NCBI RefSeq assembly: GCF_963921235.1
Contig: NC_086101.1
Location: 67,890,001-67,954,000, forward strand
Direction: 5' to 3'
DNA: 64,000 nucleotides
Source of the DNA: Mobula hypostoma
Lineage: Eukaryota
The notes under the pieces were generated by a model. That model ran no database searches. It was given only the letters and a program-made list of their open reading frames with translations, and was not told the origin of the DNA. Positions 19,627 through 58,106 of this stretch are shown piece after piece (the stretch's first letter is position 1; the number at the start of each line of letters is the position of its first letter). Position numbers and translations under genes: made by a program.

Positions 19627-22600
19627 CCTGGCACACTGGGGGGGTGTCCGACAGCTCGCCTCAGCGTTCCTAATGGCCAGCACTACTTAATGTTCTTGTC
19701 TTAAAGTGTGTTTGTGGAATTCTGGTGAGATGTTAAAGTTCATTTGTTGTTACATTTTAGCTCAGGTTGTATAGTTATTCACTTGTGTGTTTGTGGGTCA
19801 CCCTGACTGTAACCAGGGTGTGTGATCATCACCTCCCCCGTCTGTATGAGTCTGAATTGGTTCTCGCCAAGCAATGGCGCTCTGTCCATTATTCGGCTTG
19901 TCACAATAAAAAACATCTTTTGAGATAAACAAGTTCTTCTCATCTGTCATCATGGACTGAATGCTCACCTCACTGGTGTCAGGAGTGGGATTGGAAATTG
20001 GTGGCAAAATTGAAGAGCTGTGACATCAGCTGGACCCGGGGAGTAAGTCGAAGAACCCAGCGGTATGCCAGCCCCGCATCTCTGGACCAGGCTCCCGAAG
20101 ACAGGACAGCAACCTGGAGGGAGAGCCTGTGAACTGAGCATCATGTCTTCCCGGGGAACCCGATGAGGCAAGTGTACCCAGACAACCCAACCCCAGGTAC
20201 ATGGTGCAGAGCATCAGCTGCCTACATCATGGCCCACACCGGGTAACCCAAGAGAGAACAGGCAACGCTGCAGGTACCACTGACGCCACTAGAGAAAGGG
20301 GAGGACCAATCGGCCTCAGCAGTTCATGCTACAAGGTCCACCCTGAAGTTTGACAGATACAATGGTACCAGCCACCTGGAGCCTTTTTTTTGGTGCGAGT
20401 CAAACTTGCCGCACGGCACAGCAGCTAGAGCCCCAGCGAGACTGTGGTGAACCTTGCTCTGATGCTGAAGGGGGATGCCCTGTGGACCCTCCTCAACTTA
20501 AAACCAGCTGAGCGGTGTGACTACAGGGCCCTCGTAGTGGCACTGGAGTGGCATTTCGGGCAGGCACCACTGGAGGAAGCAATGAAGGAAGAACTTGGCA
20601 GCAGGGAGCAGCATGTGGAAGAAAGCCTGGGGGTGTTCACGGCAGATCTCCGCCACTGTGCTCGGCATGGCTATCCCCAGTTCCTTCCTGCGGCCCAGGA
20701 AGAGCTTGCCCTCCGTGCCTTTGTAAAGCCACTGACACTGGACCGCCTTTGGCAGCATGTTTGCCTGGTATCATCATCGTCGCTGGACGAAGCGTTGGCT
20801 TAGGCAGAGAGGGCAGTAGCAATTTTAGACCCCCCCCCCCAAGCGTTCCGGCGTCACCTCGCATGCCAAGAGCCTGTGCTTGTGTCACCGAGGCAGAGGA
20901 GGAAACTAATGAGGTGGAACCCATGCAACAGGACCAACTAGTGCCATGCTGCTCCCACCACGTGCCACAGTGCGACCTCTGCCACTGGTGCAATGAGGCA
21001 GACCATTTGGCCTGGGACTGCCCCGCACCAACACCACGCCAAGGCCCAGCGCAGTCATCGGGATATGCCAAGTGGGCAGCGCTGCCCGAGAACAAGCAGC
21101 ATCCCTCTCTGGGTGGGTCATTTGGGTGAAGAGCAAGGCTTATAATTGGACGGCGTGGTGGAGGGCATTAAATGTCGTGAACACATGATCAACCATCAGC
21201 ATCTTCTGTCCCGTTGTCCCCCACAACACAGACCAGCCGTCCCCGCCTGGGTGGGCAACGACGGCACTTCAGCTGACTGCAGTCACCGGCAACTGTATGG
21301 TGATGAGAGGGGAGAGGTGGCTGTGCATCTCAGTGGGGAAAAGCAGTGGAGCACGAGGTTTGGTTAGCTGACATCTGGGACTCCTGCATCATTGGCTTCG
21401 ACCTGCTTTCGCGCTGGTGGGGGCCCGTGTGGATGTGCTGAGGGGGCAGCACTCTACCTCGCCACTGGTACAGGGAAGCTCCAGGAAGCAGACCAAGCGG
21501 GCACAGCAACAACCACCACCGGCCTCACAGCAGCCCGCAGCAGTCCCACACAACACAGCAGAGCTAGGGCCAGGCAACGATGGCGACACTTCAGGTGACA
21601 GCTGGCAGCGAGGTAGACTTCCCTAACATTGACTATCAGCTGCTGTGCAGTGAGCAGGAGAACGATCCTGTGCTGGCCTGATTGAGGGGATGGCTGAGCA
21701 TGGGATGACGGCTGGAATGGGCAGGGGCCTCTGGAGACCAAGGCCCTATACTCTCAGTGGGGAACGATGGAGATGTGCGATAGGTTGCTGTTCTGGCCAT
21801 GGAGGTGGAAGTTTACTAATGGCAAAAAACATCTCCTGCAGCTGGTGGTCCCCCGGGGGCTCCGCACGGTTGTGCTGCAGTCGGTGCACGGGCTGGAGTG
21901 GCGGGGTGGAGGGTGGTCATTTCATAATCACAAAGACGTTGAGAAACGTGCATGAATGCTTCTATTGGCCAGGCTGCAGGAGCTGTTCGTGCACTACTGA
22001 AATGCTTGAATGCCCCAGAAGGGGCCAGACCACCAGTCTGGGGAACCAATGCAGCAATAACTGGTAGGAGCACCAGTATGCATCTCCTGCCTCACCTAGA
22101 TGATGGGACTATCTCCCAAGCTTGGAAGTCACTGGAAAAGGCCAGGAAAAGTGTTCCACCATATCTCCGATGTGGTAACCCAGGTGTGGTTGCCTGAGCA
22201 GTGGAAGGCAGTCATGCTGCACTGGGATCAGCTGGCACCCTTGGCCACCACCAACCCGGTGAACCGGAAGGAAGGAAATGATACTCTGTGCACCCTGCCT
22301 CTTATTTCACCAAACAGTGCCTCCCCTTTGGGGTTGCCATGGACGGCAGATCCCTCAGGTGGGAGCAGTGTGGCGTTCCAGGAGCTTGGTCAACAGCTTG
22401 CCCCAGCATTCCTAGCGGCCAGTGCTACTTATTGTTCTTGTTTTAAAATGCGTTTGTGGGACTATGGTGAGATGTTCAAGTTCATTCATTGTTACATTTT
22501 AACTCGGTTATACAGTTGTTTGCTTGTGTGTTTGTGGGTCACTCTGACTGTAACCAGGGTGTGCAGTTGTCTTTCCTCCTATCTGTAGGTGACTGAGTTG

Positions 22601-31839: not shown

Positions 31840-34839
31840 TCAGAACCCAGCCTTCCCTCCATACCCCCTGACCCCTGTAGCCACAAGGGCCATATCTAAC
31901 TTCCTTTTAAACATAGCCAATGAACTGGCCTCAACAGTTTGCTGTGGCAGAGAATTCCACAGATTCACCACTCTCTGTGTGAAGAAGTTTTTCCTAACCT
32001 CGGTCCTAAAAGGCTTCCCCTCTACCCTCAAACTGTGACCCCTCGTTCTGGACCTCCCCAACATCGGGAACAATCTTCCCGCATCTAGCCTGTCCAATCC
32101 CTTTAGGATCTTATACGTTTCAATCAGATCTCCCCTCAATCTTCTAAATTCCAACGAGTACAAGCCCAGTTCATCCAGTCTTTCTTCATATGAAAGACCT
32201 GCCATCCCAGGAATCAATCTGGTGAACCTTCTTTGTACTCCCTCTATGGCAAAGATGTCTTTCCTCAGATTAGGGGACCAAAACTGCACACAATACTCCA
32301 GGTGTGGTCTCACCAAGGCCTTGTACAACTGCAGTAGTACCTCCCTGCTCCTGTACTCGAATCCTCTCGCTATAAATGCCAGCATACCGTTCGCCTTTTT
32401 CACCGCCTGCTGTACCTGCATGCCCACTTTCAATGACTGGTGTATAATGACACCCAGGTCTCGTTGCACCTCCCCTTTTCCTAATCGGCCACCATTCAGA
32501 TAATAATCTGTTTTCCTATTTTTGCCACCAAAGTGGATAACTTCACATTTATCCACATTAAATTGCATCTGCCATGAGTTTGCCCACTCACCCAACCTAT
32601 CCAAGTCACCCTGCATCCTCTTAGCATCCTCCTCACTGCTAATACTGCCACCCAGCTTCGTGTCATCCGCAAACTTGGAGATGCTGCATTTAATTCCCTC
32701 ATCCAAGTCATTAATACATATTGTAAACAACTGGGGTCCCAGCACTGAGCCTTGCGGTACCCCACTAGTCACCGCCTGCCATTCTGAAAAGGTCCCGTTT
32801 ATTCCCACTCTTTGCTTCCTGTCTGCTAACCAATTCTCCACCCACACCAATACCTTACCCCCAATACCGTGTGCTTTAAGTTTGCACACTAATCTCCTGT
32901 GTGGGACCTTGTCAAAAGCCTTTTGAAAATCCAAATATACCACATCCACTGGTTCTCCCCTATCCACTCTACTAGTTACATCCTCAAAAAATTCTATGAG
33001 ATTCGTCAGACATGATTTTCCTTTCACAAATCCATGCTGACTTTGTCCAATCATTTCACCGCTTTCCAAATGTGCTGTTATCACATCCTTGATAACTGAC
33101 TCCAGCAGTTTCCCCACCACCGACGTTAGGCTAACCGGCCTATAATTCCCCGGTTTCTCTCTCCCTCCTTTTTTAAAAAGTGGGGTTACATTAGCCACCC
33201 TCCAATCCTCAGGAACTAGTCCAGAATCTAACGAGTTTTGAAAAATTATCACTAATGCATCCACTATTTCTTGGGCTACTTCCTTAAGCACTCTGGGATG
33301 CAGACCATCTGGCCCTGGGGATTTATCTGCCTTCAATCCCTTCAATTTACCTAACACCACTTCCCTGCTAACATGTATTTCGCTCAGTTCCTCCATCTCA
33401 CTGGACCCTCTGTCCCTTACTACTTCTGGAAGATTATTTATGTCCTCCTTAGTGAAGACAGAACCAAAGTAATTATTCAATTGGTCTGCCATGTCCTTGC
33501 TCCCCATAATCAATTCACCTGTTTCTGTTTGCAGGGGATCTACATTTGTCTTTATCAGTCTTTTCCTTTTTACATATCTATAAAAGCTTTTACAGTCCGT
33601 TTTTATGTTCTCTGCCAGTTTTCTCTCATAATCTTTTTTCCCCTTCCTAATTAAGCCCTTTGTCCTCCTCTGCTGAACTCTGAATTTCTCCCAGTCCTCA
33701 GGTGAGCCACTTTCTCTGGCTAATTTGTATGCTACTTCTTTGGAATTGATACTATTCCTAATTTCTCTTGTCAGCCACGGGTGCACTACCTTCCTTGATT
33801 TATTCTTTTGCCAAACTGGGATGAACAATTGTTGTAGTTCATCCATGCAACCTTTAAATGCCTGCCATTGCATATCCACCGTCAATCCTTTAAGTGTCAT
33901 TTGCCAGTCTATCTTAGCTAATTCACGACTCATACCTTCAAAGTTACCCCTCTTTAAGTTCAGAACCTTTGTTTCTGAATTAACTACATCACTCTCCATG
34001 TTAATGAAGAATTCCACCATATTATGGTCACTCTTACCCAAGGGGCCTCTCACGACAAGATCGCTAATTAACCCTTCCTCATTGCTCAAAATCCAGTCCA
34101 GAATAGCCTGCTCTCTAGTCGGTTCCTCGACATGTTGGTTCAAAAAACCATCCCGCATACATTCCAAGAAATCCTCTTCCTCAGCACCTTTACCAATTTG
34201 GTTCACCCAGTCTACATGTAGATTGAAATCACCCATTATAACTGCTGTTCCTTTATTGCACACATTTCTAATTTCCTGTTTAATACCATCTCCGACCTCA
34301 CTACTACTGTTAGGTGGCCTGTACACAACTCCCACCAGCGTCTTCTGCCCCTTAGTGTTACGCAGCTCTACCCATATCGATTCCACATCTTCCCGGCTTA
34401 TGTCCTTCCTTTCTATTGCGTTAATCTCTTTTTTAACCAGCAACGCCACCCCACCTCCCCTTCCTTCATGTCTATCCCTCCTGAATATTGAATATCCCTG
34501 AACGTTGAGCTCCCATCCCTGGTCACCCTGGAGCCATGTCTCTGTGATCCCAACTATATCATAATCATTAATAACAATCTGCACTTTCAATTCATCCACC
34601 TTATTACGAATGCTCCTTGCATTGACACATAAAGCCTTCAGGCGCTCTTTTACAACTCTCTTAGCCCTTTTTAATGCTTGCCCTGGATTTGTTGGCCTGC
34701 CACTTTTACTTTTCCCCTTTGTACTTTTTGCTTCTACGCTCACTTTACACCCCTCTGTCTCTCTGCACTGGTTCCCATCCCTCTGTTGTGAACTAACCTC
34801 CTCACACCTAGCCTCTTTAATTTGATTCCCACCCCCCAA
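31840..34839 (-). CDS. CR1 ORF2: APE endonuclease plus reverse transcriptase (999 aa open; TTG at the track start, frame open to 34860)
   Basis: NARS, GITETW, YRPP, GDFN, SDH (APE); KSPGPDG, YRPVSLTS, YLDFQKAFDKV, SGVPQGSVLGP, FADD (RT); no stops. Confidence 0.95.
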   Translation of the reverse strand: MGGGNQIKEARCEEVSSQQRDGNQCRETEGCKVSVEAKSTKGKSKSGRPTNPGQALKRAKRVVKERLKALCVNARSIRNKVDELKVQIVINDYDIVGITETWLQGDQGWELNVQGYSIFRRDRHEGRGGGVALLVKKEINAIERKDISREDVESIWVELRNTKGQKTLVGVVYRPPNSSSEVGDGIKQEIRNVCNKGTAVIMGDFNLHVDWVNQIGKGAEEEDFLECMRDGFLNQHVEEPTREQAILDWILSNEEGLISDLVVRGPLGKSDHNMVEFFINMESDVVNSETKVLNLKRGNFEGMSRELAKIDWQMTLKGLTVDMQWQAFKGCMDELQQLFIPVWQKNKSRKVVHPWLTREIRNSINSKEVAYKLARESGSPEDWEKFRVQQRRTKGLIRKGKKDYERKLAENIKTDCKSFYRYVKRKRLIKTNVDPLQTETGELIMGSKDMADQLNNYFGSVFTKEDINNLPEVVRDRGSSEMEELSEIHVSREVVLGKLKGLKADKSPGPDGLHPRVLKEVAQEIVDALVIIFQNSLDSGLVPEDWRVANVTPLFKKGGREKPGNYRPVSLTSVVGKLLESVIKDVITAHLESGEMIGQSQHGFVKGKSCLTNLIEFFEDVTSRVDRGEPVDVVYLDFQKAFDKVPHRRLVCKLKAHGIGGKVLVWVENWLADRKQRVGINGTFSEWQAVTSGVPQGSVLGPQLFTICINDLDEGIKCSISKFADDTKLGGSISSEEDAKRMQGDLDRLGEWANSWQMQFNVDKCEVIHFGGKNRKTDYYLNGGRLGKGEVQRDLGVIIHQSLKVGMQVQQAVKKANGMLAFIARGFEYRSREVLLQLYKALVRPHLEYCVQFWSPNLRKDIFAIEGVQRRFTRLIPGMAGLSYEERLDELGLYSLEFRRLRGDLIETYKILKGLDRLDAGRLFPMLGRSRTRGHSLRVEGKPFRTEVRKNFFTQRVVNLWNSLPQQTVEASSLAMFKRKLDMALVATGVRGYGGKAGF

Positions 34840-34844
34840 CCATT

Positions 34845-35078
34845 CTAGTTTAAAGTCACCTCAGTAGCCCCCGCTAATCTCCCTGCCAGGATATTGGTCC
34901 CCCTAGGATTTAAGTGTAACCCGTCCTTTTTGTACAGGTCACACCTGCGCCAAAAGAGGTCCCAATGATCCAAAAACTTGAATCCCTGCCCCCTGCTCCA
35001 ATCCCTCAGCCACGCATTTATCCTCCACCTCATCGCATTCCTACTCTCACTGTCGCGTGGCACAGGCAGTAATCCTGA
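34845..35078 (-). pseudogene. CR1 ORF1 C-terminal part (SGNH/GDSL esterase-like)
   Basis: SGLLPVP..N.WLR.W...GF.FLDHW..F...YK.DGLHLN..G with the DxxH esterase motif; stop TAG at 34845-34847. Confidence 0.9.
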
Positions 35079-36599
35079 GAAAACAGGCATCTGAGCTCCT
35101 CTCAAAACAGTAAAAGCTAGGAATTCTTGGTGTAATTGCTCATACTATGTTTTTTTTTACAAAATCAAGTGCAGGCAGATGAAAGTACTCTAACAACATA
35201 GTACAAAGACTGGACACATTCTTCTACATCATTCTCTGGCCCATCTCTCCAATACATCAAACTGATTTTTTGAAGTTCAGTTCCATTTCTGTCCTGCTCA
35301 ATTTTTCATGAAAGTTCAAGGAACCATTTTTCATTTTGGTTAAGGGAGGTAACTGAGATTAACACTTTTCAAAGAGATTATATCTTATGGATGAATTTAG
35401 ATTTCTCCAATGATAGTAAATGCATCTGCATAACTGTCACAGATAATTGGCAATTTAACTGCTTAAGAAGTGTGAAAGGGGCATTTCTCCAGCTTTCAGT
35501 CATTATCAGTCAAGGATAAGGATATTATATTATTTTCTACTGATAAAAATGATTTAAGCCACTTCTAAGTACAGCTTTTGTTTTTTTAAAATGTGCCTCA
35601 AGTTTGTGGTCAATATCAGTAGTTCCTTAAAAATCTATGTCAGCAAAATTAAAGATATTCTAACAATCGAAGTACAAGTTCTGGCAGTCTATTGCAATCT
35701 TTGTTGCTTTATAGATTTATGCAGCGCTACAAGTTTTTAGGATTTGCTGCATACGAAGAACTACACAATTGTATACAAAATTTTAAGAATTTCGTCCAAT
35801 ATGATGTAATAATTTGTATGTCATATTAAATTTCACAATGATGTCAATGAATAGCAACTTCTTTGTTTTTACTTTTATACTCCCCTTATGCTCAGAATGA
35901 TTTTGTGGTGACCATTATGTTAATTCCAGGCTGCATTTGCTGCCCACTTTATGAATGCTGTTATTTTCAAGAGTATATTCTGTACTTCCTAATTTGATAT
36001 TTTTTAAGTTAAATCTGTGCATTTTTAAAGTGTGTTGCTCATAACATTCACACAGGTCAATGAAAAACCTTAGCAATTAACATGACTATGTACTATAAAG
36101 CAAATAAATTACACACAGATCTTTAAACAGAAGAACAACAACTACATCTACAGGCACTACTCTGTTATTGGCAATCTGGGAGTTCAGTTTTCATGAATAA
36201 TCTAGCCCTCACGCTCAATAAACTTGAACCCTCCACCAATGGGAGCATTTTCAATCTCCTTTCTCTTCCTTTACCTTTCATAATCTAAATGCCTCTATTA
36301 GATCTCCCAGCAATCTACATTGATCCAAAGCCAGCAGCTCAAGCTTCGCCAATCCCTCCACATCACTAAAGACCCTAAACTTTGCATTGATTCCAATGTA
36401 CCCAGGACAAATCTGATCACACTCTGAAATTGGTCTTTTACGCTGGAAATGTCCACATCTCTTTCTGAGACGATCTTAGACTGATTTAGGGACATAAGAT
36501 AGTGAGGGCAAATAACTAGTAAATAGGGACCAATGAACCATTCACAATTCAGTTTTTGTAATGAAACGTGTATGTTAATGTAACAGGGCTGCTTCCTTT

Positions 36600-38094
36600 G
36601 AGAATTAATCACTGCGGGGATCCCTGTTTCCACAGTGCAGTGCGGTCCAGAGGAACACTTGGTGGGGGGGGGGGGGATAGGATTAGTATTCAGGTAGGGA
36701 TGGAAGGATTACTCTAGTACCAGGCTACAGATGTGTGCAGCTAGTTTTTAAGCTGACTGCTTTACAACCCCCTAGTTCTTGCATGGATAGCACAAATTGC
36801 CTTTTCCAACATTTACTCTATAGGCAAGTTACTCACAGTGAAATTAGGACAAAGGCAGAGAAGGAAAAGAGGAATTATAAAGTTGTTAGAAGCAGGATAT
36901 TCATTGTTTGAGTCCACAGTTAATACCTTAGATATAGCAGATATAGATGCTTTGGATGAAGTTAAAGGGAATGATAAGTCAAAATTATGATGACCTGGGA
37001 CAAACTAGTTAGAGAAGTAAACTGCAGAAGTGAGATGGTAATTATACAATTATTGCAGCCATTTAAGGACACAACTAATGGGTTATTGATGGAGTGAACA
37101 ATGATTCCTGTCATCATGATAAAAATGCTACTTCTGTAACATTTCGGCGCCAAGCTCTTGTCGGTAGTCGGGACAAACTTTCTATATTTAGAAGGCCAGA
37201 GAGTCCCAGACTAGAAAGGACATCTGGCAACCAGCTGAAAGCGTGGGTGAGCAAAGGTGATTCAAGATCTCACACTGACTGATCATGCCCCAAAAGACTG
37301 AGAAAAATCAGAGGAGCCCACTGTATGATACCACAGTCCTCAGCATTCTCCAACATGGTGATAATTAAAGCACACTCTCATTGGAGTGCATAATGTCAGA
37401 AAATACCATGAGGGAAATTGGATATCACTAAGCACCTCCGGCCAATACAATCGAGTTGCACAAGTCTGATGTGGGGGTAAATTTAATGCAAAAGGGAATC
37501 ATTGGGCATGTCCAGAGGGGATTGTGTGTGGCTGAATTGATTGTGATTTTGCTACGCATGATAATTGTTCCCTGTTCATATTGCCTTTTAATAATGAAAC
37601 CTTCTTGAAATATACTTTGGTGAGGCAACATCTACAACCTAGCAACATCAGTAAGAGTATATTACAAGGGGTAGTTCCAATGCAGCCTGATTGGCTATAA
37701 TGTGGCAATCTGTGTCACATTAATGATTGGAGAGCATACCTTGCCTCAGCTACTTGCAGAGGAGATGCTGGAGTTGGAGCTTACCATTTATGGTAGTGAC
37801 ACAGACGAAGGATTGTTCAATTCTGTAGCCACAAACTACCAGACATTGCACACATTATTGCTGATTGGGAAAAGATCATCTGGGAGAATAAGCGACTCAT
37901 TAAGAAATGAGATGCACTGTCAAAAAATATAATGGATTATTAGAACAGGCTCAAAGTGGCTCCAGAAAACACTCCCTTTGGGAAAGTATTTGGAATTGGG
38001 GTTTGAATGTACAAATCCATCCCTGGATTTGACTTCCATCGCTGGTGTACAGCTGATTGTTTTAATGACCATTATCATCTTAATGTGCAGGTAA
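36600..38094 (+). pseudogene. Decayed class I fusion glycoprotein (F-like env) of an endogenous retrovirus-like element
   Basis: RQRRKR|GIIKLLEAGYSLFESTVNTLDIADID (furin-type site 36859-36870); Cys-rich HWACP..CDF..NCSL; LWESIWNWG..HPWI followed by hydrophobic IAGVQLIVLMTIIILMC. Confidence 0.65.
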
Positions 38095-38157
38095 AGCATT
38101 GGTGTTTGGGGAATACTCATTTAGTTAGCATTCTATTAGGAATCTAATATTTAGAAC

Positions 38158-38630
38158 TGTTATAGGAAAAAGCACAGTGAGGGCTAATAATTAGTACATA
38201 GAGATGTAGATTATGCTAATGTGGTAATAGGGATCCACAGACAAAAGTAGAGACATGGAATGCAATAGCTAGGACCCCCAAGTTTCAGGAATTCACTAAT
38301 TGTGTTACAGCTTGCACCCATTCTTGCAATAGAAAATTAGATTTACTGCTAGACAGGAGGAGGATAATTTTATTCTGTAATCAGGGCCTAATTTGCTACT
38401 TAATTAAGTCCTCCTGTAGCCAACAATCTGTTATTAAAATGTAGTTGTAGTCAACTGAGTTTTTTCTAAAGCTTGACCAAATTCATGCTCAGGTAGATCA
38501 GTGCTGGCTAGTCTCCTGGTACGCATCAGCTTTTAATAAATCGCCTGTTATTTTGAACACCAACTCATTGTGATCTTTCAGTTTGCTCTGACGTAGATCT
38601 CATCTCCCATTTAATTTCCCATTAATAACA
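38158..38630 (+). mobile_element. Candidate 3' LTR of the env-bearing element
   Basis: TGTTAT...ATAACA inverted termini, AATAAA at 38535-38540, directly after the env stop. No partner LTR or TSD found, and the last CA overlaps the next element's TIR. Confidence 0.35.
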
Positions 38631-40155
38631 CTGGACAACAAGCATTTTGCTTCCTGAATTCCTTTGGGTGTATCCTATGGATTTTGGGTTGCTGATCATG
38701 AAAATCATCATGAAATTTCCCTACAATGCACCAATTTTTTAAAAAAATCCCTATATTTGTTATTTCAATTCATAATTCATGTCAATTAAAATGTTTCCCA
38801 AGTTTTCTATCATGTCCAGGTTTTAGAAAGACTATAAAAGCATCAGGCACACACTGTTCTATGCTTTGCATTTACAAGTATATCAGTTTGCAATCCTGTT
38901 AGTGTGCATAATTTACCCACATATCATACTGTGAGTACTCATTATAATACAGTACTGGTAGTTTAGGTGTATTTGTAAGAGCAAAATGTCTCACCAATGT
39001 TGCAACAGCTGCGATACTTTCTTTATATTTTTGACAAGAATACACTTAAATTTTAAATACAGATTGTGACTCCTCTTATTAAGAAAGCCTATGAGCTCTA
39101 CTTTGGGTGTAAAATTGGTGACCAAGACAAAGCCTAGCCTCCTCATATTTTTTGCACAACATGCGTTTTTGATATTAGAGCTTGGCTCAGGGGTACTCTG
39201 AAGTCAATGCAGTTTGCTATGCCCATGATATGGCTAGAGCAGAAGGATCATGTGACAGATTGCTACTTCTGTCTGACCAGTGTGTCTGGTTTCTCTATTG
39301 AAAACAAGAAATCAATTGAATGCCCCAATCTTCCTTCAGCCATGAGACCTGTGCCGCATGACAATAGTCTTCCAGTACCAAAGCCACCAGAGACATGGAG
39401 TCTAGAGGAAGCAAGTTAAGATGCCATGATACACAAGCCAGGGATAAAAAACAACAGTGATACTGATACAGATTTTGAACTCTTTATGTAGAGTGAGCCT
39501 CATCTGATATCTCAGTCTGAGTTAAGTGACCTTGTCAGAGACTTGTGTTTGTCAATGGCAAAAGCAGAATTACTGCATTCAAGACTGCAAGATTGGAATC
39601 TACGGTCAACAGGCACAAAAATTTCTGTGAAGGATTTTGATATTTGAGACAGATGTTTTAGAGAATAGCTGTTGCCAAGATTAAGGAAAGCATTTTTGTT
39701 GGTCCCCAAATCAAACCAGTCATCGATGACAGGCAATTCGAAGAACTTCTAGTGCGACTGGAGAAAATCACATGGAAGGCATTTAAGCATGTTCTTGAAA
39801 ATTTTCCTGGCACCTACAGTGCACCAAACTACTTGTATGCTTCAAGCATATAAAACTTTGAAGTGCAACAAGTTACTAAAGATTAATTTTCTGCACTCCG
39901 ATTTAGACTTTTTCCCTGCATATCTTCTTACTGTCAATGAGGAGTATAGTGAAAGGTTTCACGAGGACTTTTCAGTCATGGAGAAATGGTATCAACACAA
40001 CTGGAATCCATCAATACTGGCTGATTATTATTGGACGCTTCAGCGAGAAACCTCAGACAATTAGTACAAATGAAAAACATCAACAAAACATTTTTAGCTT
40101 AGTTGAACTGTTGCAAAGTGTCAGCACTGTTATGCAATTAAACATATTATTTTCA
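38629..40155 (+). mobile_element. DNA transposon deletion derivative, copy 2
   Basis: Left TIR CACTGGACAACAA..TTGCTTCCT (complement of the copy 1 right end); FAMPMIW.EQKDHVTDCYFC, SRLQDWNL, GPQI, LADYYW. Confidence 0.82.
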
Positions 40156-40159
40156 ATGT

Positions 40160-40470
40160 ATTGCCCATGTCAAAGATGTCTAAATCTAGAATGCAAATGT
40201 TTAAGTGAGAAGGAGAAGGTTTAAAGGAAATCTGAGGAACAATTTTTCACAAAAAGTACTTGGCATCTGGAATCAGCTTTCTGAGAAGGTGGCAGAGACA
40301 GGAAGAGTAACCATTTTTAAGAGGAAACTTGAATGAGAAAAGCCAAGAAGAACATAAATTAATTCAGGAAAGTGAGATCGGTATAGATAGGCATGATGGT
40401 TGGCATAAATGCAGTGATCAATGGTCATGTTCCTTTGCTGTAAAATTCCACATGATTCTTTAACTCTAAG
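40160..40470 (+). mobile_element. Old CR1 3' fragment
   Basis: Degenerate F.V.GE.FKG.LR..FF and WN.L.E.V.E region plus CR1 3' UTR. Confidence 0.65.
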
Positions 40471-56670: not shown

Positions 56671-58106
56671 TGTCATGGTCTGGATCGGGGTCCCTTTAAA
56701 TTTACCTTGTTTACGTTACGATCCAGACCGTTGATTCCTTGTTTTCCCGTTTTCCTTGACTTTGGTGATGAGAGGCAATTAGCACTCGGCTGAACCGGTA
56801 GTTTATAATCACTGGCTTTCAGCTGTTCGGTGCAGGAGCGTCTGCAAAGTCTGCAAAGTCACGGCGTACCAATGTCATCTGGCCGGAGCAAGCCTTGTCT
56901 CCGCCCGAAGCAAGTGCCGGTAATTCGCCTTTCCTCACCTGAGCAACCCTGTCCAGTTACCTCCCCGAAGCAAGCCTGCAAAGTTTCCTCATCAAGGTGG
57001 GTCCGTCAGTTAACCCGTCAGAGAGCATCAAGAGCCGCTGTCTACTGTTCCCGGGTCGAGTCGAGAGCTCGGCACTACCCGGAGGTTCCAAGCACCACGT
57101 CCCAGCTCTGGCGGCATTCAAGTACCACGTCCACGTCCTGACCCTGGCTGCATTCAAGTACCACGTTCACGTCCTGGCCCTGGCGGCATTCAAGTACCAT
57201 GTCCACGTCCTGTCCCTGGCGGCGTTCAAGTACCATGTCAAGTCCTGGCCCTGGCAGCTTCCAGTTCTGAGTCTAGTCCTGGCCCTGGCGGTCTGTGATT
57301 CCTGTCCTACCCCCTTGTCTGAATCTCTTCTCTGCCCCTCTCACCTCTAGCCCTCGTCTTCGGTCTAGTTCCATCACTGGAGCTACTTAGGTACTGTCTG
57401 GTGTTCATTCATGTTGGTCTTGTCTTGTCTTGTCCTCGCCTCCGTGGGGTAAGTCAAGCCGTCTTGCCTTTGCCCCGTGGGGAATCATGTCTTGTCTTGT
57501 CCTTGCCTCCGTGGGGTAAGTCAGGCCGTCTTGCCGTTGCCCCGAGGGGGGTCATGTCTTGTCGTGTCTTGTCCTCGCCTCCGTGGGATAAGTCAGGCGT
57601 CATGAGTCACGGCCCTATGTCCCGTACCCAAGGAGGAGGCCTGGCTGTCTGTTCTGTGTGCGAGTCCCGGCCCTATGTCCTGTACCCAAGGAGGGGTCCC
57701 GACACTGTGCTCTGTGTCTGTGTCCATGGTTCCATGTACCTGCTCTCCCGAGACCGAGGTTCTGTGTTCCCATGTTCCTCCTCTCCCTAGCCCATGTCAT
57801 GTCCATGCCTGTTTCTAGGGTCCGAGCCCGAGGCAAGACCCAGGTACTGGGTCCTTGCCCAGTCTCGGGCTCGGAGTCCATACCCTAGCCTCTTCATGTC
57901 TCCTCTAGTTCTGGGATCCAATACCAAGTCCTAGTCCAGACCCTTGGTTCCAGCTTAGTCGTAGTGCTCAGTCCTTGTTCAGTTCACTATTCCTACTCCT
58001 GCCTTGCTCTCCTGGTTTTGAACAATAAACTAAATTTAAGTAACCTCACAAGATTTGTCTTGCATTTGGGTCCACCCTTGCTCCCTATGCCCCCACCATT
58101 GTGACA
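56671..58106 (+). mobile_element. 1.44-kb solo LTR with internal tandem arrays
   Basis: TGTCA...TGACA termini; perfect 5-bp TSD TAATG (56666-56670 and 58107-58111); AATAAA ~58024. Confidence 0.88.
57087..57257 (+). repeat. 36-bp minisatellite within the solo LTR (~4.5 copies)
   Basis: Unit TTCAAGTACCACGTCCACGTCCTGGCCCTGGCGGCA; reads as repeated LAAFKYHVHVL in ORF 56997-57350. Confidence 0.9.

Follow-up and report, generated by a model that had tools for sequence, protein, structure and literature searches.

Foamy virus Env and paramyxovirus F are reported to have a common core (Fernandez 2024, PMC11468914), and an F-like Env with a signal peptide, an RXKR cleavage site, a fusion peptide, a coiled coil and a transmembrane (TM) segment has been described for the lokiretroviruses (Wang and Han 2020, PMC7947760). 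On a further retroviral branch, that of snakehead retrovirus (SnRV), related endogenous retroviruses are known in the elephant shark as CmiERV lineage I (Han 2015, PMC4422223), and clade Huo has been reported from all major vertebrate lineages (Xu 2018, PMC6001957). The parts of the present picture are thus known separately: SnRV-like endogenous retroviruses in chondrichthyans, and F-like Env in lokiretroviruses and foamy viruses. Among the titles listed in literature searches, none joined an F-type Env to SnRV-like elements or dealt with env capture in elasmobranchs; a report of the latter may already exist within a survey of retroviral co-option. Known env captures are mostly of the gamma type. 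Here, we describe an env remnant in the window, by which we mean the whole stretch of 64,000 nucleotides of DNA that was analysed, together with its relatives in the same genome. From sequence comparison we consider it very probable that this env belongs to an internally deleted LTR provirus of an old multi-copy family, the pol of which is likely SnRV-like and the Env of which is predicted to be a class I fusion protein of the F type.

The element spans positions 36482-38593 of the window on the plus strand and is flanked by a 5-bp target-site duplication, TAGAC on the left (36477..36481) and TAGAT, one letter off, on the right (38594..38598). A 5′-LTR stub consisting of the first 48 nt of the LTR (36482..36529), which matches the start of the 3′ LTR at 78% over 40 nt, is fused straight to a decayed env remnant (36530..38094) of about 520 codons in 17 frame segments with 5 in-frame stops. 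After a gap of about 60 nt comes the 3′ LTR (38158..38593, about 436 nt), which starts with TG, has a decayed CA end and is paired in fuller copies. Homology to other copies extends from about 36526 to 38590. Because positions 36482-36529 match the LTR start and TAGAC and TAGAT flank the element, the window copy is a whole integration site minus its interior, that is, a dead, internally deleted retrovirus fossil. It has lost most of the 5′ LTR, gag, pol and the env start; no gag-pol adjoins env in the window, just as the original prediction had it, and this is the outcome of the deletion. A comparison with 10 copies revealed a few bases common to both sides of the LTR/env junction. About 6 kb would have been lost, likely by deletion at a short sequence common to both ends, and the locus is now likely an inert relic.

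Several other features are present in the window. Immediately to the right of the LTR, at about 38620-40200, lies a decayed DNA-transposon-like remnant with a Cys/His motif near 39220, which we take to resemble that of Chapaev/CACTA-type elements. On the minus strand, a stop-free frame of 1006 codons (31840-34860) looks to us like the ORF2 of a LINE with endonuclease and reverse transcriptase (RT), and is likely a young copy. A GC-rich remnant at 20429-22588, presumably Gypsy-like, contains gag-knuckle and integrase-like pieces, and short tandem repeats at 56943-57350 encode a repeated peptide in one frame.

The original prediction, made by translating across stops and frameshifts from 36600 to 38094, listed six blocks of motifs. 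All of them are found at their places and in their order on the plus strand at 36680-38094, in three frames; the frame of the piece 'GLL' alone has no support from the copies. The end at 38094, with its TM-like stretch and stop, is correct, and the start has to be moved to 36530. In translation, a polybasic furin-type cleavage site, RQRRKR, is located at 36853..36870, and the pattern R-x-[RK]-[RK]-K-R is present in 6 of 20 fetched copies. The site is real, but its position early in the gene is partly an artefact: it looks early in the window copy because the part of env upstream, about 100 env codons, has been deleted, and in fuller copies it lies about 185-215 codons after the start, behind a signal-peptide-like start. 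The predicted fusion peptide (36871..36940) matches P0051, a natural catshark ORF of 513 aa, at 52% over 40 aa, and the score of this region in copy L027 against a PF00523 cluster is 0.91, which we treat as no more than a lead. Then follow a predicted long heptad-repeat helix A (36941..37215), corresponding to helices 82-184 in the AlphaFold model of P0051 (block pLDDT 54-87), and a Cys-containing, beta-rich region with sequons (37305..37830), recognized by alignment (hhalign against an unbroken relative, E 1e-71), the fold of which is modelled only at low confidence. A predicted heptad-repeat helix B (37836..37972), supported by alignments and by helix 423-471 in the P0051 model, leads to a Trp-rich membrane-proximal stretch, a TM segment with a mean hydropathy of 2.2 and a stop (37976..38094). 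There is almost no cytoplasmic tail, the stop codon at 38092-38094 closing the TM-like stretch.

Are these motifs more than a chance pattern in decayed DNA? A DNA search of the same genome (G000, 3.48 Gb), in which the window is C12:67890001-67954000, gave 56 matches including the window, the other 55 at 66-82% identity, so that the element is multi-copy. The catshark ORF P0051 is collinear with the window env (tblastn E 2e-13, against E 0.52 for a reversed-protein control), and an unbroken relative from the same genome matches it at E 3e-51. Among 26 copies, one frame is almost stop-free in nearly every 60-nt window, and the other frames usually hold stops common to many copies. In 20 of 21 intervals, the commonest distance from one motif to the next is divisible by three, and the remaining interval spans a G-run. 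By these other copies, the P0051 match with its reversed control, the unbroken relative, and the frame and spacing patterns, the env motifs are more than chance. Since one frame is nearly stop-free across the 26 copies and the motif spacing is three-fold, the ancestor of the family likely had a single long open env frame. The copies show no codon-position periodicity, which is consistent with neutral decay, and a Pfam search with three frames of the window gave no match for any of them.

The fuller copies span about 8.5 kb and carry knuckle, protease, RT, RNase H and integrase motifs upstream of env; in L027, L028 and L037 the motifs stand in the order gag-pro-pol-env. A Cys-His knuckle-like motif was seen in 2 of 13 decayed copies scanned. 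A primer-binding site matches the 3′ end of tRNA-Ser(AGA) of the same genome at 16 of 18 positions in L073 and 15 of 18 in L037, and 5-bp target-site duplications with one mismatch also flank L031 and L034. The LTR search (749 first-look genome candidates, 40 of them scored) gave 41 matches, and in 10 copies with two LTR matches the pairs differ by K2P 0.16-0.31 (median 0.21). With two published rates, 2.2e-9 and 2.2e-10 per site per year, these pairs put the age of the family at about 50 to 480 million years, which is poorly bounded. On account of the paired LTRs, the 5-bp duplication and the tRNA-Ser-type primer site, the family is an old multi-copy endogenous retrovirus with LTR proviruses. 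Its entry into the germ line would date back at least tens of millions of years, and neutral decay would have followed.

The linkage of RT and env has been seen from both sides. Copies found by env hold RT motifs, and 6 of 20 fetched stretches found by RT match the window element; a search of the same genome with RT, independent of env, puts the same family at the top. In addition, two further families came to light. A younger sister family (L069, L072, L074, L075, L077, L084, L085) shares the RT type and has clear knuckles in gag. Five of its copies have LTR pairs at K2P 0.055-0.15, its primer site differs, and no env match was found in it. In another family (L099-L108), the env is of the F type and shares about 40-49% identity with the unbroken ORF, and 5 of 10 stretches have an LPQG-type RT motif upstream of env.

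To which retroviral branch does the family belong? The original prediction had pointed to the lokiretroviruses, so that the locus would be a lokiretrovirus relic and cartilaginous fishes would be added to the hosts of that lineage. Besides their RT clade, lokiretroviruses are marked by an Env similar to the fusion glycoprotein family PF00523, by an integrase closest to CGIN1 and, in some, by an smc gene. An F-like Env with an RXKR site is indeed a feature of that lineage, and six chondrichthyan genomes stand without an asterisk, taken as the positive mark, in the table of PMC7947760, so that such a gap exists; as far as that table goes, lokiretroviruses were not reported in the chondrichthyans screened. 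DIANGFW- and RLTIDY-type motifs are common to the RTs of both, as is an RNase H downstream of a tether-length spacer. However, in the RT alignment in the supplement of PMC7947760, all 24 Loki rows have PFG and all 15 retrovirus rows viewed have LPQG, whereas PFG occurs in none of 12 family RT rows, where the LPQG type, often decayed, predominates. The furin site also differs, being about 120 codons into the Loki-Str Env, and the surface subunit is about 120 residues in Loki and about 200 here. Thus the linked RT, of the LPQG type and without PFG, does not support the lokiretrovirus lead, which we regard as very improbable.

Other observations would be accounted for if the element came from a foamy or foamy-like virus that had become endogenous in cartilaginous fish. 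The best PDB match of the RT piece is foamy RT (E 3e-10), followed by MLV (4.5e-9) and, far weaker, Ty3 (7.6e-5); foamy Env is the only named row to reach the naming bar in the structure search described below, and a foamy endogenous retrovirus of cartilaginous fish is cited in the literature. Nevertheless, foamy Gag lacks a knuckle (PMC2717909), whereas 2 of 13 copies have one here; the Env is about 630 aa as against 990, with a surface part much shorter than gp130; the family LTR is about 440 nt; and the RT is longer before YVDD, as in SnRV and unlike the foamy rows. A foamy origin is therefore very unlikely.

The SnRV-like reading of pol fits these RT features. The motifs TRLPQGFH.SP.IF and LQYVDD.L of the family are as in the SnRV row, a gag zinc knuckle is common to both, and the branch that includes SnRV, CmiERV lineage I and clade Huo has already been reported in cartilaginous fish (PMC4422223, PMC6001957); the likeness is one of RT and gag. 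In a FastTree RT tree (midpoint-rooted, 61 rows of at least 110 residues kept), the 12 family rows group in a star-like clade with a support of 1.0. It adjoins proteins of sharks (Heterodontus, Mustelus) and a minnow (Pimephales) as well as unnamed ones, and stands apart from the gamma-like sequences. The tree contains no SnRV, Loki or foamy references, and the family looks nearest SnRV as judged by eye from the RT alignment of the Loki paper. A homologue search with an 89-aa RT piece passed none of 131 candidates, viral-contig scans with two pol homologs gave no matches, and a metagenome scan with a pol homolog gave one distant RT, which was not placed in the tree.

Several lines of search bear on the type of the envelope. 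With a profile built from natural env pieces, 11 of 1.84 billion proteins were found, of which 8 are named, all from five shark genera, and P0034, P0035 and P0041 are without a name; a second env search gave 10 catshark proteins, 8 of them new. As the named homologs are all from sharks, the host is likely a cartilaginous fish, a shark or ray. In a feature search of the ESM Atlas, P0051 was tied to PF00523 clusters at 0.93-0.95, having 206-218 features in common with them, as well as to Baculo_F and Gypsy Env. In the structure search of the Atlas, foamy Env (PF03408) reached the naming bar, and Baculo_F, Gypsy and F0 appeared at TM 0.41-0.49, all rows having TM <0.5. The homolog P0042 matched Baculo_F at E 0.0011, under the cut-off. 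AlphaFold models of P0051 and P0052 are mainly helical, with two long helices and a TM helix, at a low pLDDT of 53 and 58 and with no confident core. Three Foldseek runs gave no match at E 0.001 or better, foamy post-fusion Env (8rm1) being third in one of them at E 1.4; VIA runs on Env returned generic coiled coils; PDB profile searches with three env alignments and phmmer with the unbroken ORF gave nothing significant; and neither P0051 nor the unbroken ORF was assigned to an F-type family by Pfam. In these respects the Env differs from foamy Env and paramyxo- or pneumovirus F, which it matches at the sequence level neither in PDB nor in Pfam, and resembles them in its predicted F-type core and in a cleavage followed by a second subunit of about 405 residues. 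The comparison with F and class I profiles and structures that had been proposed for this locus is divided: Pfam and the PDB profiles are blank, and the Atlas features and structures point to F-type or foamy Env.

The layout is that of an F-type protein, with a furin site, a fusion peptide, two heptad helices and a TM segment. The CX6CC/ISD pattern is absent in all five shark homologs and CX6CC is absent in the unbroken ORF, as had been said of the window copy. Since our own AlphaFold models are poor, the ESM Atlas is the one source of support for the core fold. Taken with the layout, it suggests that the ancestral Env was likely an F-type class I fusion protein, in keeping with the predicted relic of an endogenous retrovirus bearing such an envelope without CX6CC or ISD. 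Such an Env would have a signal peptide and a surface subunit of about 200 residues, and a furin cut would free the fusion peptide. Helices A and B would then refold into a hairpin and so draw the membranes towards each other, in the manner of paramyxovirus F and foamy Env. That the env is instead a stand-alone F gene of a negative-strand virus, inserted by chance inside an LTR element, is suggested by the feature similarity to Mononegavirales F clusters, but it is hardly credible and is largely ruled out by the pol-env linkage: env occupies the canonical slot, beginning right where pol ends, and does so in many copies and in at least three families that have retroviral pol pieces. The N-terminal part of the Env differs between the window family (L068:3994-4392, minus strand) and the unbroken relative (L087 residues 1-180), and had no Pfam match in either. 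In Heterodontus, the gene model of P0042 (fbxo15 isoform X3), an F-box gene, ends in an env fragment from helix B to TM, which may be an exonised env or an annotation artefact.

The unbroken relative deserves separate treatment. A search of the same genome with P0051 gave 95 matches, the best of which is a stop-free frame of 741 codons containing an ORF of 733 aa (L087:826-3027, plus strand; G000:C2:126459313-126461514), an open frame within a decayed provirus. The ORF begins with a hydrophobic stretch, carries eight sequons and an RRRR site at residue 279, and includes a TM segment; its match to the window family sets in at about residue 180 and continues from there. L087 belongs to a different family from the window element (92 DNA matches, the others at 67-88%). 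Its upstream pol pieces are broken, at 25-40% identity to relatives, and an LTR-like pair has K2P 0.196 over 317 nt. A splice-acceptor-like site is seen just before the env ATG, and the ORF has no exact match in the protein collection.

The open frame stands out from its siblings. In 11 sibling copies, 223 disruptions were counted in 5,227 codons, by which about 31 would be expected in 733 codons, and none is seen. The L087 branch has a pN/pS of 0.20, with 82 of 133 changes at third positions, as against 0.53-0.99 for the siblings; when changes are not polarised, the mismatch between L087 and the siblings is 0.147 at first, 0.127 at second and 0.205 at third codon positions. Thus, the L087 env is an open frame under purifying selection in a decayed provirus.

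The locus is also present in other species. The L087 stretch or a part of it occurs in 20 of the 24 sequencing runs listed, from seven organisms, one of which (organism A) may be the source itself; no RNA run was on record as containing it. All four runs examined (organisms C, D, F and G) hold the ORF and flanks at the same locus with partial cover. Within the ORF, 10 of 32 contig pieces shown give 143 differences in 4,077 nt (3.5%) with no gaps. The flanks, represented by 13 pieces, some beyond the 3′ LTR, give 516 differences in 8,070 nt (6.4%) and 115 gap letters, with gaps in 12 of the 13 pieces. This comparison left out three pieces straddling an ORF end and six in-ORF pieces about 12-14% divergent, five of them gapped. 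These six either overlap closer pieces or are covered at low depth, and we take them to be paralogs. No indel in the ORF occurs among the 12 indel rows listed of 34, no single piece spanning the whole ORF.

Captured env genes such as the syncytins, percomORF and the teleost captures, as described in PMC12813294, are like L087, and like it only among the copies studied here, in being a single open env within a decayed provirus, under purifying selection and at a locus common to several species. L087 differs from them in its Env, predicted to be F-type rather than gamma-type, in its likely cartilaginous-fish host and in its expression and fusion activity, which are putative. The L087 env is likely a host-captured F-type envelope gene, still a putative one: a sister family bearing an Env of this kind would have left one unbroken env, likely kept by selection as a host gene. 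We lean, somewhat more cautiously, towards the wider view that the Env of SnRV-like retroviruses in sharks and rays is a compact fusion protein of the foamy/paramyxovirus type, and that one such Env, that of L087 with its 733 codons, was captured long ago and kept across several species in a syncytin-like manner.

The present findings would place the F-type envelope on a third retroviral branch, besides the foamy viruses and the lokiretroviruses. This bears on whether the F-type Env is the ancestral retroviral envelope, for which four scenarios are laid out in PMC7947760. The L087 env offers a natural template for modelling this kind of Env and, provided that it is expressed, would be a candidate for a host role in fusing cells, in reproduction or in blocking viruses in sharks or rays. 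If the capture is true, it would be a syncytin-like capture of an F-type envelope in the cartilaginous fishes, a group with many live-bearing lineages.
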